From IMG/VR virus record IMGVR_UViG_3300020183_000012, positions 82,720-146,719 of that record: 64,000 bases of DNA, one strand, 5' to 3'. Position 1 is the stretch's first letter. The number at the start of each line of letters is the position of its first letter. The position numbers and the translations under genes were made by a program. The stretch comes from a virus. This document shows positions 526 through 15,806 of this stretch, piece after piece. A model generated the notes under the pieces. The model saw only the letters and a program-made list of their open reading frames with translations. It made no database searches and was not told the DNA's origin.

Positions 526-550
526 TTCATCGGGTGAATAAACTAATGGC

Positions 551-916
551 ATGAGTCACCCTTACCATCACGCTCTGTCAAGTGTCAAGCGTTTCGGAGG
601 CACTTGGAGCGATTACATTGAGATTCACGAATGGTTCGATCAGACGAAGGCTCTTATCCCTGATGTTCGTCATCGGGCAATCCTTCATTCGTCTTTCGGA
701 ATCTTCCTGTGCCAACAGGTTTTCGGTGAGGTTCTTGTGCGGGATTCTGACGGAAAGCCCGTGCCTGTCCGTACCATTGCGGAGCAACACATTATTGAGG
801 ACATGGGATTTATCCCTACTCCTCAAGATTGGTTTGCGGGTATGCAGCCCGAGAAGTGGATGGCAAGAGGAGCAAAGCCTCTTTCCGCTGAAACAGAACA
901 AGTTTTGGCTGACTAG
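551..916 (+). CDS. DUF6915-like phage protein
   Basis: HPYHHAxSSxxxFGG, IHxWFDxTK, RHRAxxHxxFGI and AEQHIxED motifs; leaderless start 6 nt after TAAACT. Confidence 0.8.
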   Translation: MSHPYHHALSSVKRFGGTWSDYIEIHEWFDQTKALIPDVRHRAILHSSFGIFLCQQVFGEVLVRDSDGKPVPVRTIAEQHIIEDMGFIPTPQDWFAGMQPEKWMARGAKPLSAETEQVLAD

Positions 917-926
917 ACAATCTTAA

Positions 927-1000
927 GTTCCCGTGGCTCAGTTGGATAGAGCAGCCGCCTTCTAAGCGGCAGGTCGCTGGTTCGAGTCCAGCCGGGAACG
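927..1000 (+). tRNA. tRNA-Arg(TCT), no encoded CCA
   Basis: acceptor GTTCCCG/CGGGAAC, anticodon arm GCCGC-CTTCTAA-GCGGC, T-loop TTCGAGT. Confidence 0.95.
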
Positions 1001-1008
1001 CTTCTACG

Positions 1009-1034
1009 ATACCCGGTTCATAGCCGGGTATTTT
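1009..1034 (+). terminator. intrinsic terminator-like hairpin
   Basis: ATACCCGG-TTCATAG-CCGGGTAT followed by TTT. Confidence 0.6.
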
Positions 1035-1225
1035 AACTAATCCGGGGAATCTGCATTATTTTGCTTGCCTATTTGGTCTATTGGGCTATAGTTCCACCTC
1101 TGAAGAGATGATTCAAGGTGCATAGACTACATAGGTGAAAGTTGCATCCCGAGAATAGACTAATGGGGTAATAGTGCCGCACCGAGTGGCACAACAAGTT
1201 GAGCATTCGCACAAGGATACAAATA

Positions 1226-1864
1226 ATGCCTGTTGCAAGTCCTATTGATACCGGAACACGCACCTTGACTTTCATCATCAAGGGAATCGCACCGTTGATG
1301 ATGCACAACGGTCTGTTGGCTTCGCCCTTCTATTCGTATACCAAGCGTCTGAAGGAGATCACCAAGAAGCGCGGCAAGACCGAAGAGGATCATATTGAGG
1401 TGGCTAAGATTGAGTGGGAAGGCGGTCTTTACATGAGTAGCCGCGATGCGGATACTGGTCTTTGGTCTGAGGACTCGCATCCCATCATTCCCGCTGAGTG
1501 TCTTTACGCGACCCTTCTCGCGGGAGCAAAGGCTTTCAAAGGCGGGATGTCTTTCAAGGCAGGAGTGTTCATTACTCAATCGGCTCGTCTGCGCTACAAG
1601 GGAGACAACAAGATCAAGACTCTTGCTGACCTTCGTGGCAAAGATATTTTCATCGACTCCCGCCTCGTTGATGTAAACGGCAGCAAGGTGACGCGAACCC
1701 GCCCGATCTTCCACGATTGGTCGTGCGAGTTCAATGTTGAGTATGATCCGTCCGTTGTTGATGAAGCAGACCTTATCCGTTGGGTTCAAACGGGCGGTAG
1801 GCTCAAGGGTCTTTGCGAACTGCGTCCAACGATGGGTCGGTTCACCATTGAGTCTTACAAGTGA
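1226..1864 (+). CDS. stand-alone Cas7/Csm3-like RAMP-fold protein (Vipr-like)
   Basis: N-terminal strand IKGIAPLMMH, PIIPAECLYATL (compare Cas7/Csm3 PxIPGSSLKG), WSCEFNVEYD, C-terminal G-loop GLCELRPTMGRFTI; ACAAGGA RBS before ATG 1226; followed by pentamer array. Confidence 0.7.
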   Translation: MPVASPIDTGTRTLTFIIKGIAPLMMHNGLLASPFYSYTKRLKEITKKRGKTEEDHIEVAKIEWEGGLYMSSRDADTGLWSEDSHPIIPAECLYATLLAGAKAFKGGMSFKAGVFITQSARLRYKGDNKIKTLADLRGKDIFIDSRLVDVNGSKVTRTRPIFHDWSCEFNVEYDPSVVDEADLIRWVQTGGRLKGLCELRPTMGRFTIESYK

Positions 1865-1870
1865 TGCTCT

Positions 1871-2204
1871 CCTCTCTCCGCAGAAATGCGTAGAGAGGCT
1901 TTCTTATGGTCTGCTTTGGCAGGATACGGTTCGTTGCGCTCAGGAGTGGTCTGCTTCTCGCCTTCTACCGGGGAAACCCGGTTTGGAGGCTTTCTTTAGG
2001 TCGGATGCCCTCAGATTGGGCTAGTTTAGGTAGGGTGTGATGCGATGTGTTCCGCTTCTCGCCTTCTACCGGGGAAACCCGGTTTGGAGGCTTTCTTTAG
2101 TCTTGTTGGGGCATGATACGGTCAGGTTCGGTAAGGTCAGAAGAGGTATGCTTCTCGCCTTCTACCGGGGAAACCCGGTTTGAAGGCTTTCGTGGGTACG
2201 GCAA
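1871..2204 (+). ncRNA. array of GNY-NN pentamer runs separated by a conserved GAAA-tetraloop hairpin repeat
   Basis: repeat GCTTCTCGCCTTCTACCGGGGAAACCCGGTTTG(G/A)AGGCTTTC at 1953, 2054, 2150; related hairpin at 1871-1898; variable runs 1908-1952, 1999-2053, 2100-2149 are exact multiples of 5 nt. Confidence 0.8.
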
Positions 2205-2273
2205 AGTTGCATCCGTTGAATAAAGTAGTCTTGCCCAAGTGGGCAATCTCAATCATCTAGGAGCAGAACAACA

Positions 2274-3284
2274 ATGGCACATGGAATTAAGAATCGTGAT
2301 CGCGTCCTCATCGTTGGTGACCGTGGTTGGCACGGGTTGGGTCAGCAGATGGATTCGATCAGCATGACCGATCTCAAGGAGCAGTTCCCATACTCCTACG
2401 AGAAGGTTCCGATGTTCACCGCCGATGGCGTGGAAGTTGAAGGCTTCAAGGCTGTCATCACTACCGATGACAAGCAGAGCAACGGTGTCGTGGGTGACAC
2501 CTACGAGATCATCAACCTTGACGAGATGTTTGGTCTTGCTAACGATCTTGTTGTTGCTCACGGGACGGGTCGTGTTGTCAGCGCAGGAAGCCTTCACAAC
2601 CGCGAGGACTTTTTCGTTGATCTCGGCATCGACCGCGAGTTCCGCAGCGGTGAGGATGTCAACAAGCCATTCATCGGTATCACCAACAACTTCTGTGGTA
2701 TGCGCCACTTCGTTGCGGGAGCGCACATGAACAGGATCGTCTGCGCCAATACTCTGAATCTCATGCTCCGCGAAGTCAAGGGTTCTCCTCGCGCCATCAA
2801 GATTCGTCACACTAAGGGTGCATGGAACCGACTCGCTGAGGCGAAGCGCATTCTCGGCATCACCCTTGCCGCGTTCGACAAGGCTGATGAGGAGATGCAC
2901 CAAATGATCTCCAAGAAGATGACCGATGCAGAGATCGCTTCGTACTATGATGCCATCATGCCGATGACCAACATCCCGCCTCGCCGTGCAGACGAGAACG
3001 AGGAGCAGTATGAAGCCCGTGTTGAAACCATCGAACGCGCAAACCGCAAGGCTTCCCGTGTCCGTGCAGAGTGGAGCATGACGCTTGACAACGAGCGCGG
3101 CGTTCTTGGTCAGGAGCCGAACCTTTGGCTTGCGATGAACTCCGTGACCAAGTGGGTTCAGCATGAGAATCAGGTGAAGAACGAATCGACCAATCCCCTG
3201 ATCCGTGGTTGGAGCAACCGTTTTGCAACGGGCTTCAAGATGACAAACGAAGCCCATGACGCAGCATTGTCTGTGCTTGGGTAA
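2274..3284 (+). CDS. DUF932/DUF945-family phage/plasmid protein
   Basis: WHGLG near N-terminus, RIVCANTL motif, KIRHT, LWxAxNxVT. Confidence 0.85.
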   Translation: MAHGIKNRDRVLIVGDRGWHGLGQQMDSISMTDLKEQFPYSYEKVPMFTADGVEVEGFKAVITTDDKQSNGVVGDTYEIINLDEMFGLANDLVVAHGTGRVVSAGSLHNREDFFVDLGIDREFRSGEDVNKPFIGITNNFCGMRHFVAGAHMNRIVCANTLNLMLREVKGSPRAIKIRHTKGAWNRLAEAKRILGITLAAFDKADEEMHQMISKKMTDAEIASYYDAIMPMTNIPPRRADENEEQYEARVETIERANRKASRVRAEWSMTLDNERGVLGQEPNLWLAMNSVTKWVQHENQVKNESTNPLIRGWSNRFATGFKMTNEAHDAALSVLG

Positions 3285-3294
3285 ACCGAACTAA

Positions 3295-3385
3295 GGTTAG
3301 GTATGGCGAGTCTAGGTATGCCCTGCCATTGTATGGTCTGTCAAGTTCAGTCCCCTTCACCGGAGAAATCCGGTGGAGGGGTTTT
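3295..3385 (+). ncRNA. solo GNY-NN pentamer run plus GAAA hairpin
   Basis: 12 pentamers ggtta...gtccc, then CCCCTTCACCGGA-GAAA-TCCGGTGGAGGGG-TTTT. Confidence 0.7.
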
Positions 3386-3403
3386 GCCGATAAACATAAT
3401 GAC

Positions 3404-3474
3404 TGCCTTGTGGTGAAACGGTATCACGGGAGACTTTGGATCTCCTTTTCTTGGTTCAAATCCAAGCAGGGCAA
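3404..3474 (+). tRNA. tRNA-Gln(TTG), no encoded CCA
   Basis: acceptor TGCCTTG/CAGGGCA, anticodon arm GGAGA-CTTTGGA-TCTCC, T-arm CTTGG-TTCAAAT-CCAAG. Confidence 0.9.
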
Positions 3475-3517
3475 ATCTTTCATCCTGGAAATAAACTAAT
3501 CGGACAAGGAGAACCGG

Positions 3518-3733
3518 ATGCAGAACCCCGTTACCATCACCGAAAACTGCCGAATCACCGGAGAGGCTTACTCAGTCACGGTGGATTCAGGCGACCTTGA
3601 GCGTTACAAGAACGGCGAGGGTCTGATTCAGAACATCTTCCACTACCTTAACGCAGGGGATCGTGAGTTCATCAAGACAGGCATCTCGCCCAAGGGTTGG
3701 GAAATCATGTTTGCAAACGAAGAAGAGGACTAA
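3518..3733 (+). CDS. hypothetical phage protein
   Basis: promoter/RBS repeat upstream; LIQ..F..L....REFIKTGI motif. Confidence 0.8.
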   Translation: MQNPVTITENCRITGEAYSVTVDSGDLERYKNGEGLIQNIFHYLNAGDREFIKTGISPKGWEIMFANEEED

Positions 3734-3735
3734 CA

Positions 3736-3993
3736 ATGTCATTTGAACTACGCGCACGGATTATGATTGGAAGAGGGTACAAGTTTGCCCTCGCTCAGAT
3801 TTCTGAGGACGGTGTTAATGAGTTCATCCCTGCATTTGCAAACCGTGGTGCTTTTCTTGTTCCCATATGGATCAAGTCTCAGGATGCCCACAATGTTGTC
3901 GCGGTTCTTGGTAGTGAACCAACAGACGATCAGAAGGAAGTGACCATCCCGCGTGGCTACATCCTCAGCATCGCAATGATGCCAAGTATGTAA
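3736..3993 (+). CDS. hypothetical protein
   Basis: GAGGA RBS before ATG 3736. Confidence 0.7.
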   Translation: MSFELRARIMIGRGYKFALAQISEDGVNEFIPAFANRGAFLVPIWIKSQDAHNVVAVLGSEPTDDQKEVTIPRGYILSIAMMPSM

Positions 3994-4057
3994 GTGCCAT
4001 CTCAATAATTGGCAATCTTTCATCGGGCAAATAAACTAATAGGACAAGGAGAACCGG

Positions 4058-4255
4058 ATGCAGAACCCCTTTGACAACGAACCTGAGTGTTCCTGTGACG
4101 GCTGTGACGGCAAGTTTCCCGAATCATTGATGCGTCCTGCCACCTACCGTTATGTGGACGAATCTTGGGAGACTTTCCACTTCTGCCCGTCATGCATCGC
4201 TAGAGATAGAAAACTGGATGAAGAAGCGCACCTCCGGTCACCGCACCTGTGGTGA
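4058..4255 (+). CDS. small Cys-rich (zinc-finger-like) protein
   Basis: CxxC...CxxC; repeat upstream. Confidence 0.75.
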   Translation: MQNPFDNEPECSCDGCDGKFPESLMRPATYRYVDESWETFHFCPSCIARDRKLDEEAHLRSPHLW

Positions 4256-4280
4256 TCGACAAATGAACTAACTGTGCAAA

Positions 4281-4484
4281 ATGAGCAAGAAAGACGATTC
4301 TTCAAGAAAATCAAAGAGCCTTGGGGAACTGATTGACCGTTGTCCAAGATGCGGTCGTACAATCACTTGGTTCAACGACATTCCGCTCAGGGGTTTCTGT
4401 TGGGGAACGCCCGATAACGAACACGAAGAGTATTCCGTGATTGTCTGTCAGAAGAAGATCGAAGATTTTTCATCGCGGAAATAA
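4281..4484 (+). CDS. hypothetical protein with CPRC motif
   Basis: degenerate repeat upstream; stop lies within next repeat. Confidence 0.6.
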   Translation: MSKKDDSSRKSKSLGELIDRCPRCGRTITWFNDIPLRGFCWGTPDNEHEEYSVIVCQKKIEDFSSRK

Positions 4485-4507
4485 AGTAGTTGCACAGGAA
4501 ACAAGCA

Positions 4508-4825
4508 ATGAGCGATGCATTTTCTAAAGAAATAAACTCTCATGTCTCCTCCATGAAGCAGGACATGAAAGATGTGGTTGACAAAGAACTTAAGTCTCTT
4601 GTCCTCTCCCTTGTTTCCGAGGGAATCGTCAATGCCAATTTTGACGACAAGGGCTATCTGAACGACATTTCGTTTACGGAAGGAGGCAAGGCTTTCATGG
4701 AAGTCTTGGCTTTCAATCTATCGCACCGAATCGAAAAGATTATTGAGAGCGATGGCATCAAGGAAAAGGAAAAGCAGGAACTTAAATCAGTCCTGAAGCA
4801 CATGAAAAACTTGCCGCTCCCGTGA
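4508..4825 (+). CDS. hypothetical protein
   Basis: repeat and CAGGA upstream of ATG 4508. Confidence 0.7.
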
Positions 4826-4846
4826 TGGAGCCGTATAGTTTGGAAA

Positions 4847-4920
4847 GCCCTCGTAGTTCAGTTGGATAGAGCGACGGTTTCCTAAACCGTAGGTCACAGG
4901 TTCGAACCCTGTCGGGGGCG
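4847..4920 (+). tRNA. tRNA-Arg(CCT), no encoded CCA
   Basis: acceptor GCCCTCG/CGGGGGC, anticodon arm ACGGT-TTCCTAA-ACCGT, T-loop TTCGAAC. Confidence 0.95.
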
Positions 4921-4954
4921 TTTCAAAGTTTCATCACAGGAATAAACTAGAAAT

Positions 4955-5266
4955 ATGAACACGAATTACGAAGATTTCCTCAGTCTCAGCGAAGTGACCG
5001 CTGCCGTTGCGCTTGCAGAAGGCGACAATACAACGGGAATGGAACTCATCCTGCTGAATGACGATGACGGCAATCTGACGGGAGCAGTTGCAGTCCATAC
5101 GGACGGTACGCTTGTCGGTCTTGATACTTCCGACATTATGACTGCCGTAGGATATCACAAGAACAAGGATGCTTTCACAAATGACGGCGAAGGAGCCGTC
5201 ACGGTGCGCCTTGAGGACGGATTCGTAACGGGGATTGATGTCGTTTTGAGAACCCACGAGTCTTGA
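4955..5266 (+). CDS. acidic hypothetical protein
   Basis: leaderless ATG 6 nt after TAAACT. Confidence 0.75.
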   Translation: MNTNYEDFLSLSEVTAAVALAEGDNTTGMELILLNDDDGNLTGAVAVHTDGTLVGLDTSDIMTAVGYHKNKDAFTNDGEGAVTVRLEDGFVTGIDVVLRTHES

Positions 5267-5370
5267 GTTCATCTCACGGGTCGCACTCTCGTTATAAGTG
5301 CAAACACTACGACCATCTGTAGCCTAAATGCTCAGGTGGTCATTTTACATCCGGCAAACAGGATAATAGT

Positions 5371-5565
5371 ATGAAGAAGCAAAGACAGAGCGAAATACGC
5401 AGGGCTTTGAGTCCAAACTCAGAATCCATCATGGCTTCATTTTGGTTTCTATGCGGATTCTTTGTGTTACTTTACATTTTCATAAAGACACCAATACTAA
5501 ATGTCATTTCACAGTATGTTCTTCATCCTATCAGGGATGCCCTGATGCCGGGGCCGCCGCCATGA
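5371..5565 (+). CDS. small membrane protein
   Basis: hydrophobic segment FWFLCGFFVLLYIFI. Confidence 0.55.
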   Translation: MKKQRQSEIRRALSPNSESIMASFWFLCGFFVLLYIFIKTPILNVISQYVLHPIRDALMPGPPP

Positions 5566-5621
5566 GAACGAGCACGAAAGTTTCATCCGTTGAATAAACT
5601 AATCGTACAAGGAGAGCATAA

Positions 5622-6332
5622 ATGCCAAACTGGACTGGAAATCTTCTCAAGGTCAAGGGTAAGAAGGCCGACCGCGATCTGTTTGCATCCGAACTCAAGG
5701 CTTTCATCCGCAGCAAGTTCAAGCCTCTAATCAACAAGTGGGCGGAGGAAAACCCAGACGAGTGCCGCAACAAGTACGAGAAGCGAATCGTTCCGGTGTT
5801 CGACTTCAACTTCGTGATCCCAATGCCCGAGGAACTGGAAGGCACTACTTCTCCCCGTCCGATGACGCGAGAGCAAATCATTCATTTGGCGAAGGAGAAT
5901 GAATGGCCGGAGGACACTCTGAAGTGGCGGCTTGAAAACGCTCTTACTGAAGATGATGCAAAGCGTCTTGATGAACTTAAGAGCCGCTATGGTTTCGATA
6001 ACTGGTACGAATGGTGCTGTGCCCATTGGGGGACTAAGTGGAATGCCTGTAACTCTGAAGGTAACAGCCCCCAAGAAACAGCGACCATGACTATCTACAG
6101 TTTCGATACCGCTTGGTCACCGCCTGTCCCTGTCATTCACGCACTTGCCGCTGCCTACCCCAAACTGACTTTCCGCCTTGACTTTACCCTTGAGGGTGAG
6201 TCAGGAAAGTGGAACATTATTGGCGATTCCAAGCAATACGCAGGGTGCATCAAGGCACTTGCGAAACGCCAAGTGGAGTTGGAACAGACGATCTGTGCAA
6301 TGTTCCGTGAAGGCACTATCGAAAGCAAATAA
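5622..6332 (+). CDS. DUF1281/YubB ferredoxin-like domain protein
   Basis: MPNW start, NWYEW....WGTKWNA, FDTAWSPP. Confidence 0.85.
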   Translation: MPNWTGNLLKVKGKKADRDLFASELKAFIRSKFKPLINKWAEENPDECRNKYEKRIVPVFDFNFVIPMPEELEGTTSPRPMTREQIIHLAKENEWPEDTLKWRLENALTEDDAKRLDELKSRYGFDNWYEWCCAHWGTKWNACNSEGNSPQETATMTIYSFDTAWSPPVPVIHALAAAYPKLTFRLDFTLEGESGKWNIIGDSKQYAGCIKALAKRQVELEQTICAMFREGTIESK

Positions 6333-6350
6333 TCTGCCGATAGAGGAGAT

Positions 6351-6797
6351 ATGGCTAACTTTCTCCGTTCCATCTTTGCTGCGCTAAAGGAGCCATTTCC
6401 GGCTGCGATATGCAACTGTATCCTTGATGCCTATGTCCATCCACGCGACATTCCTGTCGTGATCCAATACATGAAGGACTTTACTTATCAAGATATAAGT
6501 CTTTCTTTCGGAAACACGGACAGTCCAGATAGGACTCACATTGAGGTGAAATTCAGGGATTCGGAGTGGACTCCCAACGAGATCGTTGATTCTTTCTTTA
6601 TTTATCAGGACGATCTTCAAAGACTCATCCCCAATGGGGAATTCGTTTTCTCCATCCAAGATCACCATGTTGTTCCGTCATTTAGGAACATCATAAGGGA
6701 GAAGTACCGCACCTTCTTGTCGCGGTGGACTAGACACCGGATGAAGGTAAGCAAGCGTTGGAGGTCAGGAGATGTCGAAGTTACATCATGTAAATAA
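6351..6797 (+). CDS. hypothetical protein
   Basis: GAGGAG RBS; GCCGATAG box at 6336. Confidence 0.7.
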   Translation: MANFLRSIFAALKEPFPAAICNCILDAYVHPRDIPVVIQYMKDFTYQDISLSFGNTDSPDRTHIEVKFRDSEWTPNEIVDSFFIYQDDLQRLIPNGEFVFSIQDHHVVPSFRNIIREKYRTFLSRWTRHRMKVSKRWRSGDVEVTSCK

Positions 6798-6821
6798 ACT
6801 AATTGGACAAGGAGAACACCC

Positions 6822-7184
6822 ATGACATTCATTCCCGCCAACTTTGATGCCATGCTGACCGATCCCGGCAAAACCGTTGCGAAAGACCCATGCTTCCGTT
6901 CATGCCGAAACATGGGTTTTCAGATGACCTTCTCCAACGGATGGATGATCTCCGTACAGTTTGGAGCGTTCAACTACTGCTCCAACCGCGACTTGAACGC
7001 AGACTCAACCATGTTTCTTGATGGGCCGAAGGGGACTCTGGAGTGCGCCAACGCCGAGGTTGCCGTCTTCAACCCTGACGGCGATTTTGTTCGCCCCGAT
7101 GGTTTTGACTTTAGTGAAGATGTGAAGGGTTTTGTTAACCCTGACGAGGTTTCTCTTTTGGTTAGGTGGGTTTCTAGCCGATAA
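6822..7184 (+). CDS. hypothetical phage protein
   Basis: repeat upstream; GFQMTFSNGW.ISVQFG..NYC motif. Confidence 0.8.
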   Translation: MTFIPANFDAMLTDPGKTVAKDPCFRSCRNMGFQMTFSNGWMISVQFGAFNYCSNRDLNADSTMFLDGPKGTLECANAEVAVFNPDGDFVRPDGFDFSEDVKGFVNPDEVSLLVRWVSSR

Positions 7185-7209
7185 AGGGTTCCTACAGAAA
7201 GGAACTCCT

Positions 7210-7500
7210 ATGGGCAAGATCAAATCATTTACATTAAATATAGAACCGGAAATCGTCAGTCAGACCTACCCTGAACTTACCGAAGCACAGGTCGCCGCCG
7301 TCATGGAAGAACTGATTCAGTACGAAACTGACATCTTTGACTTCATATTCGAGAAAATTGAAGAGATTGTTGAGGATACAACCGATGGCGACGAAGAGGC
7401 GGATGATGATGACGAAGATGACGAAGATGACGACGACAATGACGAACCGTGGATGGATGAGGACGAAGACGAAGACGAAGACGAAGACGAAGACTTCTGA
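7210..7500 (+). CDS. highly acidic protein with D/E tail
   Basis: AAGGA RBS; C-terminal ~40 residues almost all D/E, including (GAAGAC)x5 at 7465-7494. Confidence 0.75.
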   Translation: MGKIKSFTLNIEPEIVSQTYPELTEAQVAAVMEELIQYETDIFDFIFEKIEEIVEDTTDGDEEADDDDEDDEDDDDNDEPWMDEDEDEDEDEDEDF

Positions 7501-7542
7501 AAGTTTCATCCGCTGAATAAACTAATCGGACAAGGAGAACCC

Positions 7543-7845
7543 ATGACGAAGAAGATGACCGTGCACGAATCGTTGGCTTGCAACAATTGCCTCATCGCAA
7601 TTACGATGCTCGACCTGTCGCTGAACGATGTCTACGGTGGTGGTGGTGCGAAGTCGATGATCCGCGAACTCGCCCCTGAGTTTTGCGGGAGCCACTACAA
7701 CTCCGAACACATCACCGACCGTTGGGATGATATCAAAGAGATTCTGATGAATCTTGACATTCCTGACGATCATCAGTCGAATCTCGCAGGGATGGCTGCG
7801 GAGGAGTCCATTCAGACTCTCCTGCTTGTCCGCGCTGTCGGTTAA
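7543..7845 (+). CDS. hypothetical protein
   Basis: repeat upstream. Confidence 0.75.
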   Translation: MTKKMTVHESLACNNCLIAITMLDLSLNDVYGGGGAKSMIRELAPEFCGSHYNSEHITDRWDDIKEILMNLDIPDDHQSNLAGMAAEESIQTLLLVRAVG

Positions 7846-7949
7846 GACTTTGGGTTCTCCTCCCCATTAGACGGGTAGGTTCTTCTTCGGAAGTTCCTAC
7901 CCGTCAACTTTACATCCGGGGAATAAACTAACTGTACAAGGAGAACCCG

Positions 7950-8405
7950 ATGAACTTCAGGTACAACGATGGAGGACGAGCCGCTGCCGGATACAAGGGA
8001 CACACCGGAGACTGCGTGACTCGTTCGATTGCGATTATCACCGGGCTTCCGTATCAGGAGGTCTACGATGTCCTGTCGAACGGATGCCGCACTCAGCGCA
8101 TCACCCGTGGAGGTCGCTACAAGTCATCTGCCAGTAACGGAGTGAACACCAAGCGCAAGTGGTTCCGCGATTACATGGAGGCACTTGGCTTCCAGTATGT
8201 CGCAACGATGGGAATTGGCAGCGGGTGCAAGACCCATTTGCGTTCGGATGAACTGCCGAAGGGCCGTCTTATTGTGCAGGTCAGCAAGCATTACACCGCC
8301 GTGATTGACGGAGTAATCAACGATACCTTTGACCCGTCCCGTGACGGCACTCGTTGCGTCTACGGTTACTGGATTCACAAACCCCTGTCCAAGATCACTG
8401 CCTGA
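7950..8405 (+). CDS. conserved phage protein, possible papain-like fold
   Basis: YNDGGR...GDCVTR...KHYTAVIDG..NDT pattern (Cys/His/Asp). Confidence 0.75.
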   Translation: MNFRYNDGGRAAAGYKGHTGDCVTRSIAIITGLPYQEVYDVLSNGCRTQRITRGGRYKSSASNGVNTKRKWFRDYMEALGFQYVATMGIGSGCKTHLRSDELPKGRLIVQVSKHYTAVIDGVINDTFDPSRDGTRCVYGYWIHKPLSKITA

Positions 8406-8431
8406 TACCTCTCACACTGGAGAACCTGACC

Positions 8432-8911
8432 ATGCAAATCAAGATCACAATCAACCTCGCATGCAACAACGCCGCATTCGCCCCGGACGATGCTAGAGGA
8501 TCGAGCGTTGCGGCATACGAGGAGGTCATGCGCATCATCAACGACGGCACGATGCCTTGGGTCATCGAAACGGCACTTGAGACGGCGACCGATACCGTCA
8601 CCTCGCACATCGGGCGCATCCTGAAGGATGTGAACGGCAACACAGTCGGGCGCATCGATGCGGAGGTGCAGTCGGCGCGGATGCACCACGCGGCGGAGAT
8701 CCCAGCACCGTGCAGGAACGACTCGACACCAACAACGAAGACCGCGATCAGTGGATGGACCGATTCCGATCTGACGATTGTGCTAGAAGCCGCCTATCAG
8801 GCTCTGTCCGACAGTCGCACTGGAGCGTCCATTGCAGAGCGCATGGACATCAGTGACGATGAACTCGATGCGACCATCTTGCGCCTCCGCGCAGTGCTGT
8901 GGACTGACTGA
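8432..8911 (+). CDS. hypothetical protein
   Basis: GGAGAACC RBS; NAAF...LKDVNGNTVG motif. Confidence 0.75.
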   Translation: MQIKITINLACNNAAFAPDDARGSSVAAYEEVMRIINDGTMPWVIETALETATDTVTSHIGRILKDVNGNTVGRIDAEVQSARMHHAAEIPAPCRNDSTPTTKTAISGWTDSDLTIVLEAAYQALSDSRTGASIAERMDISDDELDATILRLRAVLWTD

Positions 8912-8980
8912 CCGATGTACGCCGCCGCGTGAAAGAAAGTTTCATCCAATGAATAAACTAATCGGACAAGGAGAACACCC

Positions 8981-9316
8981 ATGACATTCATTCCCGCCAA
9001 CTTTGATGCCGACCAGTACGAACTGTATACCCCCGACAACGGAGACCGGAGTCAGTCAGAGGATGCGGCAGCGAAGATCAATAACATCATCAACTGTCAA
9101 CTTCAGAACAACATCACGAATTGTCGCACCGCTGCGGTTGGTGCTGCCACGAAGATGCTCCGTGAGGTTGAGCGTCAGATCATCGCACTTGGATATGAAA
9201 AGAAGTTTGGTGCGCTAGACACCGAGCCTCGCTACATCATCCGCCTTGCAATCGCCCGTAACATCCGCAAGTGGGCGGATATGGAAGAATACGAGTTCAA
9301 CACGGACTCATTCTGA
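8981..9316 (+). CDS. hypothetical protein sharing its first 10 aa with ORF 6822
   Basis: MTFIPANFDA identical; repeat upstream. Confidence 0.8.
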   Translation: MTFIPANFDADQYELYTPDNGDRSQSEDAAAKINNIINCQLQNNITNCRTAAVGAATKMLREVERQIIALGYEKKFGALDTEPRYIIRLAIARNIRKWADMEEYEFNTDSF

Positions 9317-9348
9317 AACTTTCATCGGGCAAATAAACTAACTAGGCA

Positions 9349-9570
9349 ATGTTTCATCCTTCCCAACAGCACCGCAGAGGGACTCCCGTGATTCAACTCC
9401 ATGAAACTGTAATGGGTCAAAGGCTGATTCTTCGTGACATTCCGACTTTGGTTGACCAACTGGCTCTCCTCAACCGTAACCTTGAGGCGTTGACAATTCA
9501 ACTTTCCTCACTCCGTGCAGAACAGAAGCCTAACACCGAGGCTGAAGTTTCATCGGAGAAAATGAAATAA
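9349..9570 (+). CDS. hypothetical protein
   Basis: repeat upstream; start could be GTG 9388. Confidence 0.6.
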   Translation: MFHPSQQHRRGTPVIQLHETVMGQRLILRDIPTLVDQLALLNRNLEALTIQLSSLRAEQKPNTEAEVSSEKMK

Positions 9571-9587
9571 TCAAACAAAGGAATCCA

Positions 9588-9854
9588 ATGCACGAAGAAC
9601 TCATGACACTTGACCAGTATATCGAAGCCCTCAACGCCATGAAAAAGACGCATGGTGGGGACAGCCTGATCTTCGTCTTTGATCGCTCGTTCAGCGATCT
9701 TGCTACTCAGGTTAAGAAGATGGGCAAGCGAGAGTTTGACCGTGAAATGTCGGACGATGATGTGGACAGCATCATCTTCTCCATCAACCCGAGTCCTGTT
9801 CACGATGCCATCAACGGCGCGATTGAGAGTGCCTTTGATTCGTATGTGAAGTAA
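9588..9854 (+). CDS. hypothetical protein
   Basis: variant repeat with AAGGA RBS. Confidence 0.75.
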   Translation: MHEELMTLDQYIEALNAMKKTHGGDSLIFVFDRSFSDLATQVKKMGKREFDREMSDDDVDSIIFSINPSPVHDAINGAIESAFDSYVK

Positions 9855-9884
9855 ACTTTCATCGCAGGAATAAACTAACTGCGG

Positions 9885-9946
9885 ACTCGTCTGAGCGAGT
9901 ATAAACAGGGTATTAGGCTCAGAGCGGCAGGGAAACCTGCTTTACC
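9885..9946 (+). ncRNA. pistol self-cleaving ribozyme
   Basis: P1 ACTCG/CGAGT, loop TCTGAG pairs with CTCAGA (pseudoknot), ATAAACAG linker, P2 GGTA/TACC, TTAGG, GCG, P3 GCAGG-GAAA-CCTGC. Confidence 0.88.
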
Positions 9947-10145
9947 GCCTCCCACGCCATGCAGAAAGTCCGGACTTTCAGCACCGCGTTCCAACTGTGG
10001 TGAATGCGCAGCCGCAGGGGAGAAAGAGCGTCGGCATCCTTCCCTCGCTCAAGGTGTTAAAAAGGGTGCGAACGGAACCCACCGCAGCCCCACTAGACCC
10101 AAAGAGGAGAAATTCTCGCGGGAAAGGTGGGGCTGTGCGTTGGCA
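9947..10145 (+). ncRNA. candidate structured RNA downstream of the ribozyme
   Basis: no plus-strand ORF in track; stems CACCGC/GTGGTG, GAGCG/CGCTC, GGGT/ACCC, CGCAGCCCCAC/GTGGGGCTGTG; palindrome GAAAGTCCGGACTTTC. Confidence 0.5.
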
Positions 10146-10189
10146 AACTTACATCAGTCGAATAAACTAATTTCAGCAAGGAGGCTAAA

Positions 10190-10372
10190 ATGCTTGTAAT
10201 CACCCGTAGAGAAGGCGAAGAGATCGTGATAGGTGAGCCACGCGCACCGCTTGGGATCATCCGTATTGTAGCCATCAAGGGAAGCCAAGTTAAAGTGGCA
10301 CTTGAGTTCCCGAAGGAAGTCCCGGTGAACCGCCGCGAGATTGCGGAAGAGATCATCAGCGAAGAGGAGTGA
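10190..10372 (+). CDS. csrA: carbon storage regulator CsrA homolog 1
   Basis: MLVITRREGEEIVIG...VKVALEFPKEVPVNRREI matches CsrA pattern. Confidence 0.9.
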   Translation: MLVITRREGEEIVIGEPRAPLGIIRIVAIKGSQVKVALEFPKEVPVNRREIAEEIISEEE

Positions 10373-10376
10373 TCGA

Positions 10377-10598
10377 ATGAAAACCTTTCATGTGTGTTGG
10401 AAACTGAAGACGAGCGTGGTCACCGTGGAGGTGATTACGATGACGGGACGCGAAGACAGCATGGTGGAAAAGACCGCCATGCACAATCTCAAGCGCGACG
10501 GGGTCTTCATTGACAAAACTCGTCTTGAAAAACCGACCATCACTCTTGTCTACAGCGGGGAGTCAACAGCCAAAACTTTCATCGGGCAAATAAACTAA
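10377..10598 (+). CDS. hypothetical protein
   Basis: GGAG RBS; stop lies within next repeat. Confidence 0.6.
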   Translation: MKTFHVCWKLKTSVVTVEVITMTGREDSMVEKTAMHNLKRDGVFIDKTRLEKPTITLVYSGESTAKTFIGQIN

Positions 10599-10614
10599 CC
10601 CGACAAGGACAGAT

Positions 10615-10836
10615 ATGCTTAGCATCACCCGTTCAGAAGGCCAAGAAGTTGTGGTCGGAAATCCTGCCGCACCGCTTGGAATTATTCGGATTGAAAAGAT
10701 CAAGAGCGGGAAGGTAAGGATAACCTTTGACTTCCCAAGAGAGATGCCTGTGCATCGCGCTGAGGTTGCAGCCGAAATCTTGCGTGATCGGGAGGCTCAA
10801 GACAAGGAGTTCATGAAGAGGACTTTCGGGGAGTGA
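10615..10836 (+). CDS. csrA: carbon storage regulator CsrA homolog 2
   Basis: MLSITRSEGQEVVVG...VRITFDFPREMPVHRAEV. Confidence 0.85.
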   Translation: MLSITRSEGQEVVVGNPAAPLGIIRIEKIKSGKVRITFDFPREMPVHRAEVAAEILRDREAQDKEFMKRTFGE

Positions 10837-10879
10837 AACTTTCATCGGGCAAATAAACTAACTGCACAAGGAGAACCCA

Positions 10880-11422
10880 ATGCGACTTGTGATTGACGCA
10901 GAAACAAACGCAATCGACTTCAATGCTTGGAACAAGGGAGACAGTTCTTCGCTCAAGAAGATTCATTGCCTTTGCGCGATTGACGCAGACACCGGAGAGG
11001 AATACTCTTACGAAAGCGACACGCTGAACATAGGTCTGATCCATGTTTACTCTGCTGATATGCTGATCGGACACAACCTTGCGTTTGATATCCGTGCAAT
11101 GGAGGTGTGGAGTGGAACACCGCTTCCCTCCCGGATCAAGAAGAACTGCACTTACAAGTCCGTTAAGAAGATGTTTCCCCACGGCTTCCGCGAACACCGC
11201 ATCACCAACCCTGATCGCAAGGGGTCGAACTCGCTTGAGGCTTGGGGATACCGCTTGGGAGTCCACAAGGAAAAGCCTCCGATTGATTGGAGCAAGCCGG
11301 ATCCGTTGATGCTTGGTTACTGCTTGCAAGACTGCCGTGTGACGCTTGCGCTGCATCGCCTCATCGAACGCCGCAAGAGATGGGGAATGCTTTCCCCGCT
11401 CATTGAAACTTTCATCGGGTAA
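10880..11422 (+). CDS. stand-alone DEDDy 3'-5' exonuclease (family A polymerase proofreading type)
   Basis: ExoI IDAET, ExoII GHNLAFD, SLEAWGYRLG, ExoIII YCLQD. Confidence 0.85.
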   Translation: MRLVIDAETNAIDFNAWNKGDSSSLKKIHCLCAIDADTGEEYSYESDTLNIGLIHVYSADMLIGHNLAFDIRAMEVWSGTPLPSRIKKNCTYKSVKKMFPHGFREHRITNPDRKGSNSLEAWGYRLGVHKEKPPIDWSKPDPLMLGYCLQDCRVTLALHRLIERRKRWGMLSPLIETFIG

Positions 11423-11449
11423 ATAAACTAACTGGACAAGGAGAGTCTC

Positions 11450-11725
11450 ATGTGCAAGTCAAAGACTGACATCAGCCCGAAGGTCGCAGAGAACCTCATC
11501 AGCGAGATCAACCGTCTGAAGGCGAAACTGGACATCGCACCGCGTGTCGCCGTGAAGGGAAACCCGGACTCGCAGATGGTTGAGGTTTCTCGTACCGGAT
11601 TCGAGGACGCGCTTGACTGGATGGCGTTTATCATCCACCGTGCCTCTGAAACACCGGAGCAGCGCGAAGCCCGTGAGCAACTGGACGAACAGAACAGCGT
11701 CTACAATCGCGGACTGGGAATCTGA
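11450..11725 (+). CDS. hypothetical protein
   Basis: repeat upstream. Confidence 0.75.
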   Translation: MCKSKTDISPKVAENLISEINRLKAKLDIAPRVAVKGNPDSQMVEVSRTGFEDALDWMAFIIHRASETPEQREAREQLDEQNSVYNRGLGI

Positions 11726-11830
11726 GCCATCCTGTGTGGCGGGGTGCGGCAGTCCGAGCGGGCTGTCCACCCCGTCACCTTACGAACTTGCATCGGGGAA
11801 ATAAACTAACTGGACAAGGAGAACCCAGCC

Positions 11831-12070
11831 ATGATCGTCCACTTCGTCAAGTCCAACCCCGAATACCCGAACATGATCGTCTTCGTCTACGAGGACACCA
11901 TCAGCCTCTGCAAGGGCAGCACTGGCAACGCCATCGTGACCGCTTGGGCTAAGGCTGACCGCTCCGTCCCGAACGAGGACGAGGTTCACGACATCATCAG
12001 CGACTTCATTGAGCGTTGGCAGGACGAATACAGCCCGAGCGAGTGGAGCAAGTTCGCACCCGCCACCTGA
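11831..12070 (+). CDS. hypothetical protein
   Basis: repeat upstream. Confidence 0.75.
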   Translation: MIVHFVKSNPEYPNMIVFVYEDTISLCKGSTGNAIVTAWAKADRSVPNEDEVHDIISDFIERWQDEYSPSEWSKFAPAT

Positions 12071-12083
12071 CGAGGATCAACCA

Positions 12084-12323
12084 ATGAACACGACTCCGCT
12101 CCGCGTCTCGTTCACCTGCCCCTGCTGCAACAGCGGGGGCTTCTTCAGTCCTGAGTTGAAGTCTTTCGACCAAATCGCGGGTTCCACCACCGATTGTGGG
12201 AACTGCGATGCCCTCCTCATCGTGACCCTGGACGGGACTGTCGCACCGTTCCATGAGTGGGTTAACACGGGAGATTACCGTTGGCCGAAGGACGGCAAGG
12301 GGACGAGTTTCATTACCGTCTGA
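12084..12323 (+). CDS. zinc-ribbon protein
   Basis: GAGGA RBS; CPCC...CGNC. Confidence 0.7.
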   Translation: MNTTPLRVSFTCPCCNSGGFFSPELKSFDQIAGSTTDCGNCDALLIVTLDGTVAPFHEWVNTGDYRWPKDGKGTSFITV

Positions 12324-12366
12324 AACTTTCATCGGGCAAATAAACTAATCCGACAAGGAGAACCGA

Positions 12367-12645
12367 ATGACTTACAAGAAGGAAGGCTACATCTCGGTCG
12401 ATAGCGGTCAGATCATGATCATCGACCCGTGCTACATCAAGAAGGACTTTGAGAGCGAAAGCACCGACAAGGCGGGTCTGAACTACGCAGGTGCTTGCGC
12501 TGTCACCCTGTCGGAGAACCTCTGCGGTGAGTTCGGTGGCCTTGCGTTTGCCTCCTCCACCTATTCAGGTGACGGGGAATACCCTGTCTATGTCAAGCGT
12601 GACCGCTACGGCAAGATTCTCTCCGTCAAGATCAAGTTTGCCTAA
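12367..12645 (+). CDS. DUF4241-like protein
   Basis: VDSGQIMIIDPCY and GDGEYPVY motifs. Confidence 0.75.
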   Translation: MTYKKEGYISVDSGQIMIIDPCYIKKDFESESTDKAGLNYAGACAVTLSENLCGEFGGLAFASSTYSGDGEYPVYVKRDRYGKILSVKIKFA

Positions 12646-12774
12646 TGGGTGCATCATGGGGCGTGGCAGGGATTCTCTGACGAGATCCTGTGGCGGGTAG
12701 CCAACGGGTGCGTTCCTGACCACGCCCCTCCAATCTTTCATCGGGCAAATAAACTAATCGGGCAAAGAGAACCC

Positions 12775-13044
12775 ATGAACACCCGAATCACCATCAAGGA
12801 CTTGGATCGCGCTGTGATCGAACTGAACTCGCTCCTCGGCTACACGATGGGGCAGGAAGGATCGTTCTGCTTGCAGGGATCCTACGGCGGATGGCAACTT
12901 CAGCGCAAGTGTGGCATCGGAAACGAGGCCGTCACGAACGGATACATTCCGAAGCGCAAACTGTTTGACCGCATCACCGACATTCGACGGGGCGTACAGA
13001 TCACCAAGAAGGTGCTGAATCTCAACGCCTACTACACGAACTAG
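12775..13044 (+). CDS. hypothetical phage protein
   Basis: ATG directly after repeat; RITIKDL...SYGGWQL motif. Confidence 0.8.
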   Translation: MNTRITIKDLDRAVIELNSLLGYTMGQEGSFCLQGSYGGWQLQRKCGIGNEAVTNGYIPKRKLFDRITDIRRGVQITKKVLNLNAYYTN

Positions 13045-13091
13045 CAACAATCTTTCATCGGGGAAATAAACTAATCCGACAAGGAGAACCC

Positions 13092-13409
13092 ATGTCGAAC
13101 CAAGCAATGTACCGCGAAGGCGCACCCTGCCCGTGGGGAAAGATTCTTGACACTCAGAAAGTGGCTGACGGAATCCACTTCCTCAGCACCGCAGGACACG
13201 GAGGCTACCTTCTGTCCCGTGAGCGTTTCAATCAGATGCCCGAGCACCTACGCAACCTTTCGTTCACCTCCGATCAATACTTTGAGGAAGATGTTTCGTG
13301 GTGTGCCGTTCCAATCGCCTTCCCTGAGGCGTTCAGCAAGGGAACCGTTGCAGCCGCCCAAGACTGCTACGACTCATGGCTTCACAACAATCTTTCATCG
13401 GGCAAATAA
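13092..13409 (+). CDS. DUF7007-like protein
   Basis: PWG...ADGI...STAGHGG..LS.ER...FEEDxxW. Confidence 0.75.
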   Translation: MSNQAMYREGAPCPWGKILDTQKVADGIHFLSTAGHGGYLLSRERFNQMPEHLRNLSFTSDQYFEEDVSWCAVPIAFPEAFSKGTVAAAQDCYDSWLHNNLSSGK

Positions 13410-13432
13410 ACTAATCCGACAAGGAGAACCCA

Positions 13433-13825
13433 ATGAACCGGAACCTCAAGTACCTGACCGTTGCCCTGACTGGTGGAGCAGTCTCGTTTGCCGTGGCAAT
13501 CGCATTGGACAGATCCATGCCCAAGGCATTGACCTTCATCGCTACTGGTGTGGCAGCATCGCTCGTCTCCCACATCGTGCTGTCGCTCATGGTCGCACGG
13601 AAGGTCAACCGTGTGAGCAAGACGAGCAAGAAGTTCGGTGACTTCCACCACGATCTCAACCACCTCAAGTATCCGGTTTACAACCGCAGCAAGGTGATTG
13701 AGAAGGAATCACCTGCCGCACCGAAGGGCAAGACCAAGCCGAAGCGGAAGAACCCGCCAAAGGGAAAGAAGCCAAACCCGCCCACCGATGCGGTGAATGA
13801 CGCTTCAAGCCTCAACACCGACTGA
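13433..13825 (+). CDS. membrane protein with basic tail
   Basis: two N-terminal hydrophobic segments, K/P-rich C-terminus. Confidence 0.7.
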   Translation: MNRNLKYLTVALTGGAVSFAVAIALDRSMPKALTFIATGVAASLVSHIVLSLMVARKVNRVSKTSKKFGDFHHDLNHLKYPVYNRSKVIEKESPAAPKGKTKPKRKNPPKGKKPNPPTDAVNDASSLNTD

Positions 13826-13871
13826 AACTTGCATCAGGGAAATAAACTAACTGCACAAGGAGAACCCACCA

Positions 13872-14255
13872 ATGAGCAGCACCAAGACGATGATCCTGAT
13901 CAAGGTCGATGGAACCGTGAGCGAAATCCCTAACACCGGATACGAAAGCATCGTGGCCGCAATCGGCGGCGGTTACATTGAGGCAGTCCCGATGGGCGAT
14001 GGTCACGCAGCCTACATCGACGAGGAGGGCAAGTTGAAGAACCTCCCCATCAATCCGGTCGCAACCTTCCTGTGGTACAAGCGTCTGCGACCAATGGGAG
14101 ACTTCCTGTGCGGAGACTGCGTGGTTGTCCGCAGCGTCAACGACGAGGGCGAACTGGACGGCGAGGACTACACTCCCTGCCCCGAAATCCGCAAGACCGC
14201 AGATCAGATCACCGCGATGGACGACCTTGCACGGTGTCACTTCGTCACCCCCTGA
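13872..14255 (+). CDS. DUF3846-family protein
   Basis: GGYIEAV...IDEEGKLKNLPINPVAT...GDCVV. Confidence 0.85.
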   Translation: MSSTKTMILIKVDGTVSEIPNTGYESIVAAIGGGYIEAVPMGDGHAAYIDEEGKLKNLPINPVATFLWYKRLRPMGDFLCGDCVVVRSVNDEGELDGEDYTPCPEIRKTADQITAMDDLARCHFVTP

Positions 14256-14363
14256 CACATTGGGTTCCGCGTGTGGGGCAGGGCAGGCAGCGTCTCGCCT
14301 CCCTGCCCCACCGCGTTTCTTGCATCCGGAGAATAAACTAATCGGGCAAGGAGAACCCACCAC

Positions 14364-14534
14364 ATGACCACCAAGCCACCCACCGGACACCGACCCGGAA
14401 AGTTCGTACACGACGCCTTCCGAGCAGGCATCCGACTCCGCGCCAAGACTTGGGGCAAGCGGAACACCGACCCCCGCACCGAACGCAGACGCGCCAAGAG
14501 CGAACTGCGGCGGGAAGTTGCATCAGGGAAATAA
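14364..14534 (+). CDS. small basic protein, 56 aa (not in ORF track)
   Basis: MTTKPPTGHRPGKFVHDAFRAGIRLRAKTWGKRNTDPRTERRRAKSELRREVASGK; full repeat with RBS upstream. Confidence 0.7.
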   Translation: MTTKPPTGHRPGKFVHDAFRAGIRLRAKTWGKRNTDPRTERRRAKSELRREVASGK

Positions 14535-14579
14535 ACTAATCAGGCAAGGGAATAGTTCCCCTGCAAGGAGAACCCAACC

Positions 14580-14978
14580 GTGAAGCAGATCAGCAGCGTC
14601 AGCAAGGATACCGCCACCGCACTCCGCGATGCCGTCAAGACCCACTTCGACATCACCCCCGGAAGCGCGATGAGCGGCGAGATCACCTTCGCCATCACCT
14701 TCGACATGAAGCGCGGCGAACCGTACACCAAGACCGTCCCCCAAGCCGCTTGCCCGTGGACGCTACTCTCTGTGGCACTCCACCTCGCAGGATTCGGTCG
14801 CGGTCGCATCACCGAGATCGTCAGTACCGTGCAGCAGATGACCGATGAGCAGCGCAAGGAGTACCGCGACTCCATGAGCGAATCCGTCAAGGAAGTCATG
14901 GAAGGGATCGGCGCAACCACCGTCCGCACCGTGCCAGGAACGCAGACCTTCAACACCTTCACCGTGCAGGTCACCTAA
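14580..14978 (+). CDS. hypothetical protein
   Basis: CAAGGAGAACCC before GTG. Confidence 0.75.
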   Translation: MKQISSVSKDTATALRDAVKTHFDITPGSAMSGEITFAITFDMKRGEPYTKTVPQAACPWTLLSVALHLAGFGRGRITEIVSTVQQMTDEQRKEYRDSMSESVKEVMEGIGATTVRTVPGTQTFNTFTVQVT

Positions 14979-15091
14979 ACGGGTGAACCCACGGTCAGGA
15001 TGAACCAAGCAGGGCGTGGTGAGCCGTACACCGCGCCCTGTACCATTGTTGCATCGGGGAAACAAACTAACTAGACAAGAGGAACCCACCC

Positions 15092-15487
15092 ATGCCCACC
15101 ACTACCTACACCGCCGAAACCGTCCGCACCAAACTGATGACCGATGACGCTTGGCTCATTCGTGGCTTGCTTGCCATCTTCGCCCTACAGACCGAGGACG
15201 AACGCGCCGCAGGCAGCACAACCCATCACAACGGCGTAGGCTTCAACGGAGTGGATGCTTCGTTCTGCACCTCCCTTGTCGAGCAGTTCAAGGGGCGTGG
15301 CTCCCTGTCCCCCAAGCAGATCGCATCCCTCCGCAAGATCATGCCCAAGTACGCCGCGCAGTTGGCAGCCGTCGCCAACGCGAAGGCAGCCGCAGCCGCA
15401 GCCACAGCAGACGCAGACGCAGCCCGTGCAGCCGCAGCCGAAGCCGCTCACGAAGCCCGTCTGCAAGCCGAGTACGGCGAACCCTAG
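15092..15487 (+). CDS. conserved phage protein with Ala-rich tail
   Basis: QTEDE...NGVGFNGVDA...LSPKQ motif; repeat upstream. Confidence 0.8.
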   Translation: MPTTTYTAETVRTKLMTDDAWLIRGLLAIFALQTEDERAAGSTTHHNGVGFNGVDASFCTSLVEQFKGRGSLSPKQIASLRKIMPKYAAQLAAVANAKAAAAAATADADAARAAAAEAAHEARLQAEYGEP

Positions 15488-15806
15488 TAAGTCGAACCGG
15501 GCAGAGCAGCACGCCGCTACACTAGACCCTGCACAGACGGACTCAGCCACAGACCAACCGGAATCCGTGGGGTAACAAGTTGCATCCCGCGAATAGACTA
15601 ACTGTGCAACCGAACCACGAAAAAACCACGGACAAACCAGCGTCAAACTGAGCCGACCGGAAAGTGCCTTGGCGGCTACCCCCTACCGTACCCCCCTATT
15701 ACTTGGGGTAAAATCCCTCTGAGGGGATACCTTAGTGGGAAAATGGTAGTTTTTTAATTTTGGGTGGAAGGGATACCTTAGTGGGAGGTGGTATAGGTAT
15801 AATATT

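Follow-up and report, generated by a model that had tools for sequence, protein, structure and literature searches.

Pistol ribozymes (RF02679; Weinberg 2015; Harris 2015, PMC4604425) are a phage-associated class of self-cleaving RNAs whose biological role in bacteria and phages is still open (PMC6765202). Their chemistry is well understood: self-cleavage depends on Mg2+ and leaves 2',3'-cyclic phosphate and 5'-OH ends. Phage copies lie mostly before open reading frames (ORFs), a setting in which the consequences of cleavage are difficult to tell apart from those of translation. Ribozyme-punctuated operons of phages and prophages carry hammerhead, pistol or twister ribozymes between small genes (PMC6765202), and theta (minimal HDV-like) ribozymes beside phage tRNAs have been proposed to set the end of a non-coding RNA (PMC10879173). 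Exact RNA ends are also obtained with engineered 5' ribozyme cassettes, and the pistol is among these tools (PMC9521606).

We analyzed a 64-kb window (the whole stretch of DNA under study) of a 146.7-kb viral record from IMG/VR. The window contains a pistol ribozyme that shares P1, the pseudoknot, P2, P3, the junction and the core with the described class. It differs from the class in having U at position -1 (A in two relatives) in place of the usual G, a short P3 of 5 bp with a GAAA loop, and a location immediately behind a promoter-like box, with a structured non-coding RNA and not an ORF following it. The phage host probably belongs to Planctomycetota, while in the literature the emphasis is on Firmicutes.

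As in the ribozyme-punctuated operons, a self-cleaving ribozyme stands in a block of small genes and presumably cuts the primary transcript, and in one relative (L150) it likewise follows directly after a stop codon. However, there is a single pistol in 146 kb and no array, the other genes of the block are separated by promoter-like boxes and not by ribozymes, and the downstream product is a non-coding RNA. The theta ribozymes resemble this locus in that a small ribozyme is proposed to set a non-coding RNA end, but they belong to another family, and the RNA after the present pistol is not a tRNA. A ribozyme of the HDV-like type cleaves at its 5' boundary and would thus set the 3' end of an RNA lying upstream; a pistol, by contrast, cleaves close to its 3' boundary and fixes the 5' end of what lies downstream. 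The logic of the engineered cassettes is the same as that proposed here, namely a promoter, a cis-cleaving ribozyme and an RNA with a homogeneous 5'-OH, with 5 ribozyme-derived bases left; judged from its sequence, the present locus would provide such an arrangement in nature, maintained within a phage clade.

The pistol ribozyme and its junction

The earlier note on this DNA had described a complete pistol fold and proposed a search with the Infernal/Rfam pistol model. The Rfam cmscan search gave a match to RF02679 (Pistol) at window positions 9885-9946 on the + strand with 55.6 bits against a gathering score of 34.5. The E-value was 2e-07 for the 64-kb window and 1.4e-09 in a local search, and the match spanned model positions 1-68, which is the full length. 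The elements of the ribozyme are as follows.

9885-9946, + strand: Pistol self-cleaving ribozyme, Rfam RF02679
9885-9889 / 9896-9900, + strand: P1, read from the sequence
9890-9895 (UCUGAG) / 9918-9923 (CUCAGA), + strand: pseudoknot, 6 bp
+ strand: linker AUAAA, read from the sequence
9909-9912 (GGUA) / 9943-9946 (UACC), + strand: P2
9924-9926, + strand: conserved GCG
9927-9931 (GCAGG) / 9936-9940 (CCUGC), + strand: P3, with GAAA loop
U9941-U9942: 2-nt P3-P2 junction, between the end of P3 (9940) and the start of P2 (9943)
9941..9942, + strand: predicted scissile bond U(-1)/U(+1), from the Rfam alignment and the published site (PMC4604425)

P1, P2, P3 and the pseudoknot, which joins the P1 loop to the P2-P3 junction, are all fully paired. 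Every capital-letter position of the Rfam consensus is matched, with the -1 junction base (U for G) as the sole exception. The RF02679 match and direct reading thus bear out each helix, the pseudoknot and the GCG where the earlier note had placed them, and G9924 had been correctly picked out as the catalytic residue. The cut predicted between 9941 and 9942, at a U-U junction, also agrees with the Rfam alignment and the 2-nt junction.

By alignment with the env25 pistol, we take G9924, C9925, G9926 and G9917 to be the equivalents of G40, C41, G42 and G33, and G9916 and U9913 those of purine 32 and U29; as the counterpart of G40, G9924 would presumably be the general base. All of these core positions are invariant among the relatives of the locus. 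The conserved AAA of the linker is present as well. Ten pistol residues are more than 97% conserved and U29 pairs with U(+1) (PMC6795133), the roles of the core residues have been described (PMC6795133 and PMC7027511), and the structure of the env25 pistol is 5K7C (PMC6154101, PMC6795133, PMC7027511). Besides this one pistol, the Rfam scan detected no ribozyme of any family, either in the window or in the whole 146.7-kb record. As a side observation, GCGG at 9881-9884 can pair with CCGC at 9945-9948, overlapping the 3' strand of P2 and competing with P2 in the minimum free energy fold. This pairing shows a double change to GUGG/CCAC in L148 and may be due to chance, because it is broken in L146 and L144.

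The P3-P2 junction carries the scissile bond, and its 2-nt length is strictly conserved (Harris 2015, PMC4604425), whereas the GU identity at the cleavage site is merely modestly conserved (PMC4604425, PMC6154101). Because the identity is reported to vary (PMC4604425), we did not treat a non-G base at -1 as defining for membership in the class. For comparison, viral pistols were collected from IMG/VR with a conserved-position pattern, yielding 50 records, all above the Rfam cut-off, with 45 unique sequences, and the junction bases were read from the ends of the Rfam matches. (Two further loci, found with an over-strict pistol pattern, were not pistols by Rfam and were discarded.) Position -1 was G in 37 sequences, A in 6 and C in 2; none of the 45 had U there, and position +1 was U in 42 of them. 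The +1 base of the present pistol is the canonical U and is invariant among its relatives, in which the -1 base is U or A (A in L144 and L150). A U at -1 is rare, yet position -1, as far as these sequences go, tolerates bases other than G. In pistols with G(-1), its N2 contacts O6 of G42 (PMC6795133, PMC7027511). With U(-1) this contact is lost and the cleavage rate could therefore be reduced; the same contact is also missing in the natural A(-1) variants.

The promoter-like box and the related loci

Upstream of the ribozyme we noted the following two features.

9588..9854, + strand: 88-aa phage protein, function unassigned, no Pfam match; syntenic anchor upstream of the pistol
9856-9878, + strand: promoter-like box CTTTCATCGCAGGAATAAACTAA, of the form CTTTCATC-N4-GAATAAACTAA, with the -10-like TAAACT at 9871-9876

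The record of 146.7 kb contains 29 copies of the box pattern CTTTCATC-N4-RAATAAACTAA, all of them on the + strand, and 25 of these copies lie in the window at 536-15601. When one mismatch was allowed, the 11-nt box core matched 28 times in the window, where 3.0 matches were expected. After most copies comes a fixed leader, GGACAAGGAGAACCC, with an ATG behind it (for example at 7515-7545). The box at 9856-9878 does not have the usual GGACAAGGAGAACCC leader and the pistol starts 7 nt after it, in line with the earlier description of a promoter repeat without its usual RBS directly before the pistol. At three leaderless-type boxes (536-551, 4940-4957 and 9331-9351) an ATG is found 5-8 nt past the box end, an arrangement that suggests leaderless mRNAs at 536, 4940 and 9331. 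By the same spacing, transcription before the pistol would likely start at about 9883-9886, essentially at the first base of the ribozyme. The box-ATG arrangement at 9331 is kept in L150 and L157, and a box at 1153 also stands without the usual leader.

We infer from its sequence that the box is a promoter. A scan for sigma-70 promoters read TAAACT of a sister box as the -10 hexamer, and this sigma-70-like scan gave a -35 element (TTGGCA-17-TAAACT, 10140-10168) only for the box at 10160; the other copies share none. The conserved TTTCAT of the box lies only 8 nt upstream of TAAACT, whereas the sigma-70 spacer is 16-18 nt. A T7-like RNA polymerase, a beta-prime subunit and RtcB were searched for without success, which is uninformative in a record that is 36% complete. 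A search of IMG/VR with the box pattern returned single matches only, at chance level.

Related loci were found through both the upstream protein and the downstream RNA. The 88-aa protein has nine homologs with 68-100% identity on syntenic contigs, each with a pistol and the RNA downstream, and the same pistol stands at the same place in eight distinct related loci from metagenomes, with one pistol per locus. The related contigs come from freshwater samples. When JGI metagenomes were searched with two invariant blocks of the RNA, four loci were obtained, all of the same clade and with a pistol directly upstream, and one of them (L157) was a new version. Because the nine versions all come from one phage clade, the link between pistol and RNA counts as a single evolutionary observation. 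BLASTN of 9600-10500 against GenBank phages gave no match, an exact 38-mer of the pistol was absent from IMG/VR, and retrieval from IMG/VR by CsrA gave three contigs, none with a pistol. In L148 and L149 a called 86-aa gene (3292-3552) overlies the pistol and the structured RNA and is probably a spurious call.

The pistols of the relatives scored 51-55.6 bits with RF02679. Across the relatives 98.8% of the pistol cells were paired. Variation was counted over four distinct pistol sequences, in which nearly every position outside ten columns is unchanged. Six of the ten variable columns make up three compensatory pairs, one each in the pseudoknot (C-G to U-A), P3 (G-C to A-U) and P2 (A-U to U-A); the other four are a wobble that is kept, the variable linker, the -1 base and a broken terminal pair of the pseudoknot. 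As read from these sequences, this is the pattern expected of a ribozyme under selection.

The most divergent relative was informative about the box. L150 no longer has an intact box ahead of the pistol: its decayed remains lie in the end of an extended upstream ORF (CTTTCAC...AGGTCTAA), and the pistol starts about 15 nt past the stop codon. Pistol, RNA and the box after them are nevertheless retained. The earlier claim that a dedicated transcript begins with the pistol therefore applies in part. A start at about 9883-9886 may be assumed in the window, but the decay of the box in L150 means that the 5'-end position in a dedicated transcript is not the conserved feature. Since L150 keeps the pistol and the RNA without the box, the conserved unit is the pistol with the RNA, not the promoter with the pistol.

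The RNA downstream of the predicted cut

The region that follows the predicted cut folds into a series of helices.

9942..~10147, + strand: conserved structured non-coding RNA of ~196-206 nt, no Rfam family; 3' end approximate
9943-9946/10053-10056, + strand: helix H1 (tentative), UACC with GGUG, reusing the 3' strand of pistol P2
9949-9953/10018-10022, + strand: H2
9954-9962/9981-9989, + strand: H3
9965-9969/9974-9978, + strand: H4
9995-10001/10011-10017, + strand: H5
10026-10034/10043-10050, + strand: H6
10064-10069/10075-10080, + strand: H7, whose loop has an invariant ACGGA
10083-10094/10126-10137, + strand: H8, a conserved 12-bp GC-rich stem

The 251 nt after the cut site gave a fold z-score of -4.97 against shuffled sequences. 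Nine distinct versions of the RNA were aligned from position +1 to the 3' tail, with a consensus of 59 pairs. In this alignment 95.8% of the cells were paired, compared with 42-50% when the partners were slid. Changes on both sides were found in 18 of the 59 pairs, against 5.8 ± 1.8 in shuffles (0 of 500 reached 18) and 2-5 in the slid controls. Helix H1 is treated as tentative because it shows no covariation. None of the reading frames stays open throughout the versions, indels of 1-2 nt are common, and the variable columns are spread over the three codon positions as 30/34/31; the downstream RNA is non-coding. An ORF at 9997-10170 (57 aa) was considered as a gene and rejected.

The RNA matched no Rfam family even at E <= 10. 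Across ~1 Mb of viral loci with pistols, the covariance model of its core (R1) recovered the window copy and no other; it gave a single copy in the record and none in five Phycisphaerae genomes. No homolog was found near other phage pistols by BLAST or motif search, and the invariant blocks were absent from IMG/VR. Each copy that was found through the RNA's own invariant blocks has a pistol directly upstream. These results make the downstream RNA a well-supported new structured RNA family without an Rfam match. After H8 its 3' tail is G/U-rich in the relatives (UUGUGAGUUU) and U-poorer in the window.

Role of the ribozyme

We consider it likely, with a probability of about 60%, that the phage uses an active-type pistol, built into the transcript, to mature the 5' end of a non-coding RNA. 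Transcription would start at about 9883-9886, a few bases past the promoter-like box, and the ribozyme would be transcribed first and fold into P1, the pseudoknot, P3 and P2. When the UACC strand of P2 (9943-9946) emerges, the RNA would be cut between U9941 and U9942. A ribozyme piece of ~57-60 nt would leave with the original 5' end and a 2',3'-cyclic phosphate, and the ~200-nt downstream RNA would, by the chemistry of the family, receive a defined 5'-OH-UUACC end. The freed UACC may then pair, tentatively, with GGUG at 10053-10056 and close the multi-helix junction of the RNA. As the RNA would cut itself, its mature 5' end would be the same whether the unit has its own promoter or is transcribed by read-through, as in L150. 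The retention of pistol and RNA without the box in L150 suggests that the conserved job of the pistol is most likely to cut out the 5' end of the RNA, and not only to remove the triphosphate. Loss of the triphosphate end and stabilization of the downstream RNA, both proposed in the earlier note, would be possible effects of the cut.

The neighboring genes bear on the alternatives, and downstream of the RNA we found the following.

10148..10170, + strand: further promoter-like box, CTTACATC-N4-GAATAAACTAA, with the csrA Shine-Dalgarno sequence AAGGAGG after it
10190..10372, + strand: phage CsrA paralog 1, 60 aa, Pfam PF02599, E = 1.4e-13
10615..10836, + strand: phage CsrA paralog 2, 73 aa, Pfam PF02599, E = 3.9e-10, with its own box at 10588

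An unlikely reading is processing of the csrA mRNA leader by the pistol, in which the 200-nt stretch would be a long 5' UTR, possibly regulatory and with a terminator-like hairpin, and the 5'-OH end would change the stability or translation of the csrA message. A CsrA homolog is indeed the next gene in 7 of the 9 distinct versions, counting the unannotated 75-aa gene of L146. The scan called no canonical intrinsic terminator after the RNA, so the cleaved RNA could continue into csrA. Many of the 31 high-scoring viral pistols with enough flank have an ORF with a Shine-Dalgarno sequence within 30-40 nt downstream, which fits the processing of mRNA leaders; the sequence blocks of the present RNA are absent beside all 31. 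However, each of the two CsrA-family genes has its own box and Shine-Dalgarno sequence (10148-10189 for the first), and in every version a full box and a Shine-Dalgarno sequence stand between the RNA and csrA. An unrelated gene comes next in L157, where two csrA genes lie 1.2-1.8 kb downstream, and a different gene follows the RNA in L150. Furthermore, the structure and the sequence blocks of the RNA are conserved far beyond the needs of a spacer, and its long GC-rich terminal hairpin with the G/U-rich tail of the relatives could terminate transcription. The proposal in the earlier note that the pistol product possibly includes the csrA message was therefore not upheld: the RNA is conserved, structured and non-coding, csrA has its own start signals, and csrA is not the next gene in two of the nine versions.

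It is very unlikely, although the RNA adjoins csrA genes in all versions, that the released RNA is, like CsrB or RsmZ, a decoy or partner of the two phage CsrA proteins, with the ribozyme supplying a stable and exact 5' end. RNAs of the CsrB/RsmZ type have numerous, enriched GGA motifs, most of them in hairpin loops. ACGGA in the H7 loop is invariant (9/9) and GGA is present in the H4 loop in 8/9 versions. GGA motifs, however, are not enriched (5 observed against 4.5 expected, with 5 reached in 233 of 500 shuffles), and this role thus has no quantitative support. Two of the four conserved GGA sites are base-paired and only that of H7 is invariant, the CsrB, CsrC and Rsm models of Rfam gave no match even at E <= 10, and the adjacency to csrA is not independent evidence, because all versions come from one clade.

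That the pistol is a passenger or a decaying element without a role in the phage, crippled by its rare U(-1), is hardly credible: U(-1) is found in 0 of 45 other viral pistols and the function of phage pistols is generally unresolved (PMC6765202), but this one is kept at the same site while the neighboring protein diverges to 68% identity, its ten variable columns fall as selection on the fold would predict, and the A(-1) of the relatives matches the state of 6 of the 45.

Returning to the maturation of a non-coding RNA, a stronger form, which we regard as quite unlikely, is that the pistol and the 200-nt RNA constitute a new phage non-coding RNA gene that needs a ribozyme-made, triphosphate-free, exact 5' end. 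A regulatory partner or decoy for phage CsrA would be one possibility for such a gene. The GGACAAGGAGAACCC leader contains ACAAGGA, which we take to resemble the CsrA-binding core ACARGGA. Because the phage encodes two CsrA paralogs and has ACAAGGA in its leaders, its CsrA proteins might act on the ACAAGGA-containing leaders of ~20 early genes and might shut off translation of the phage's own early genes.

The closest bacterial CsrA homologs (60-73% identity) are nearly all from freshwater MAGs of Planctomycetota, class Phycisphaerae, and Planctomycetota as the host lineage is a guess from this one small gene. No pistol was found in 151 sampled Phycisphaerales genomes. The phage is probably very large, as the 146.7-kb record is estimated to be 36% complete. 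Among its box-driven small genes are tRNA genes for Arg-TCT, Gln-TTG and Arg-CCT (927-1001, 3404-3474 and 4847-4920), and a gene for a CCA-adding enzyme lies further on (30323-31918); the phage invests in its own small-RNA supply. A 180-aa protein encoded after the second csrA (10880-11422) is distantly related (30% identity, E = 1e-8) to a protein of L118 (3461-3907), an unrelated viral locus that also carries a pistol.

The product at this locus is a discrete conserved non-coding RNA whose 5' end would be set by the ribozyme with or without a promoter, and the locus is therefore a clean test case for the natural role of the pistol. The prediction is an RNA of ~200 nt with a 5'-OH at 9942 that is absent in a G9924 mutant. 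The locus adds a natural pistol with U or A at -1, and likely extends pistols to phages of Planctomycetota. If the reading as an RNA gene connected with CsrA is true, a biological role would be defined for a pistol ribozyme for the first time.
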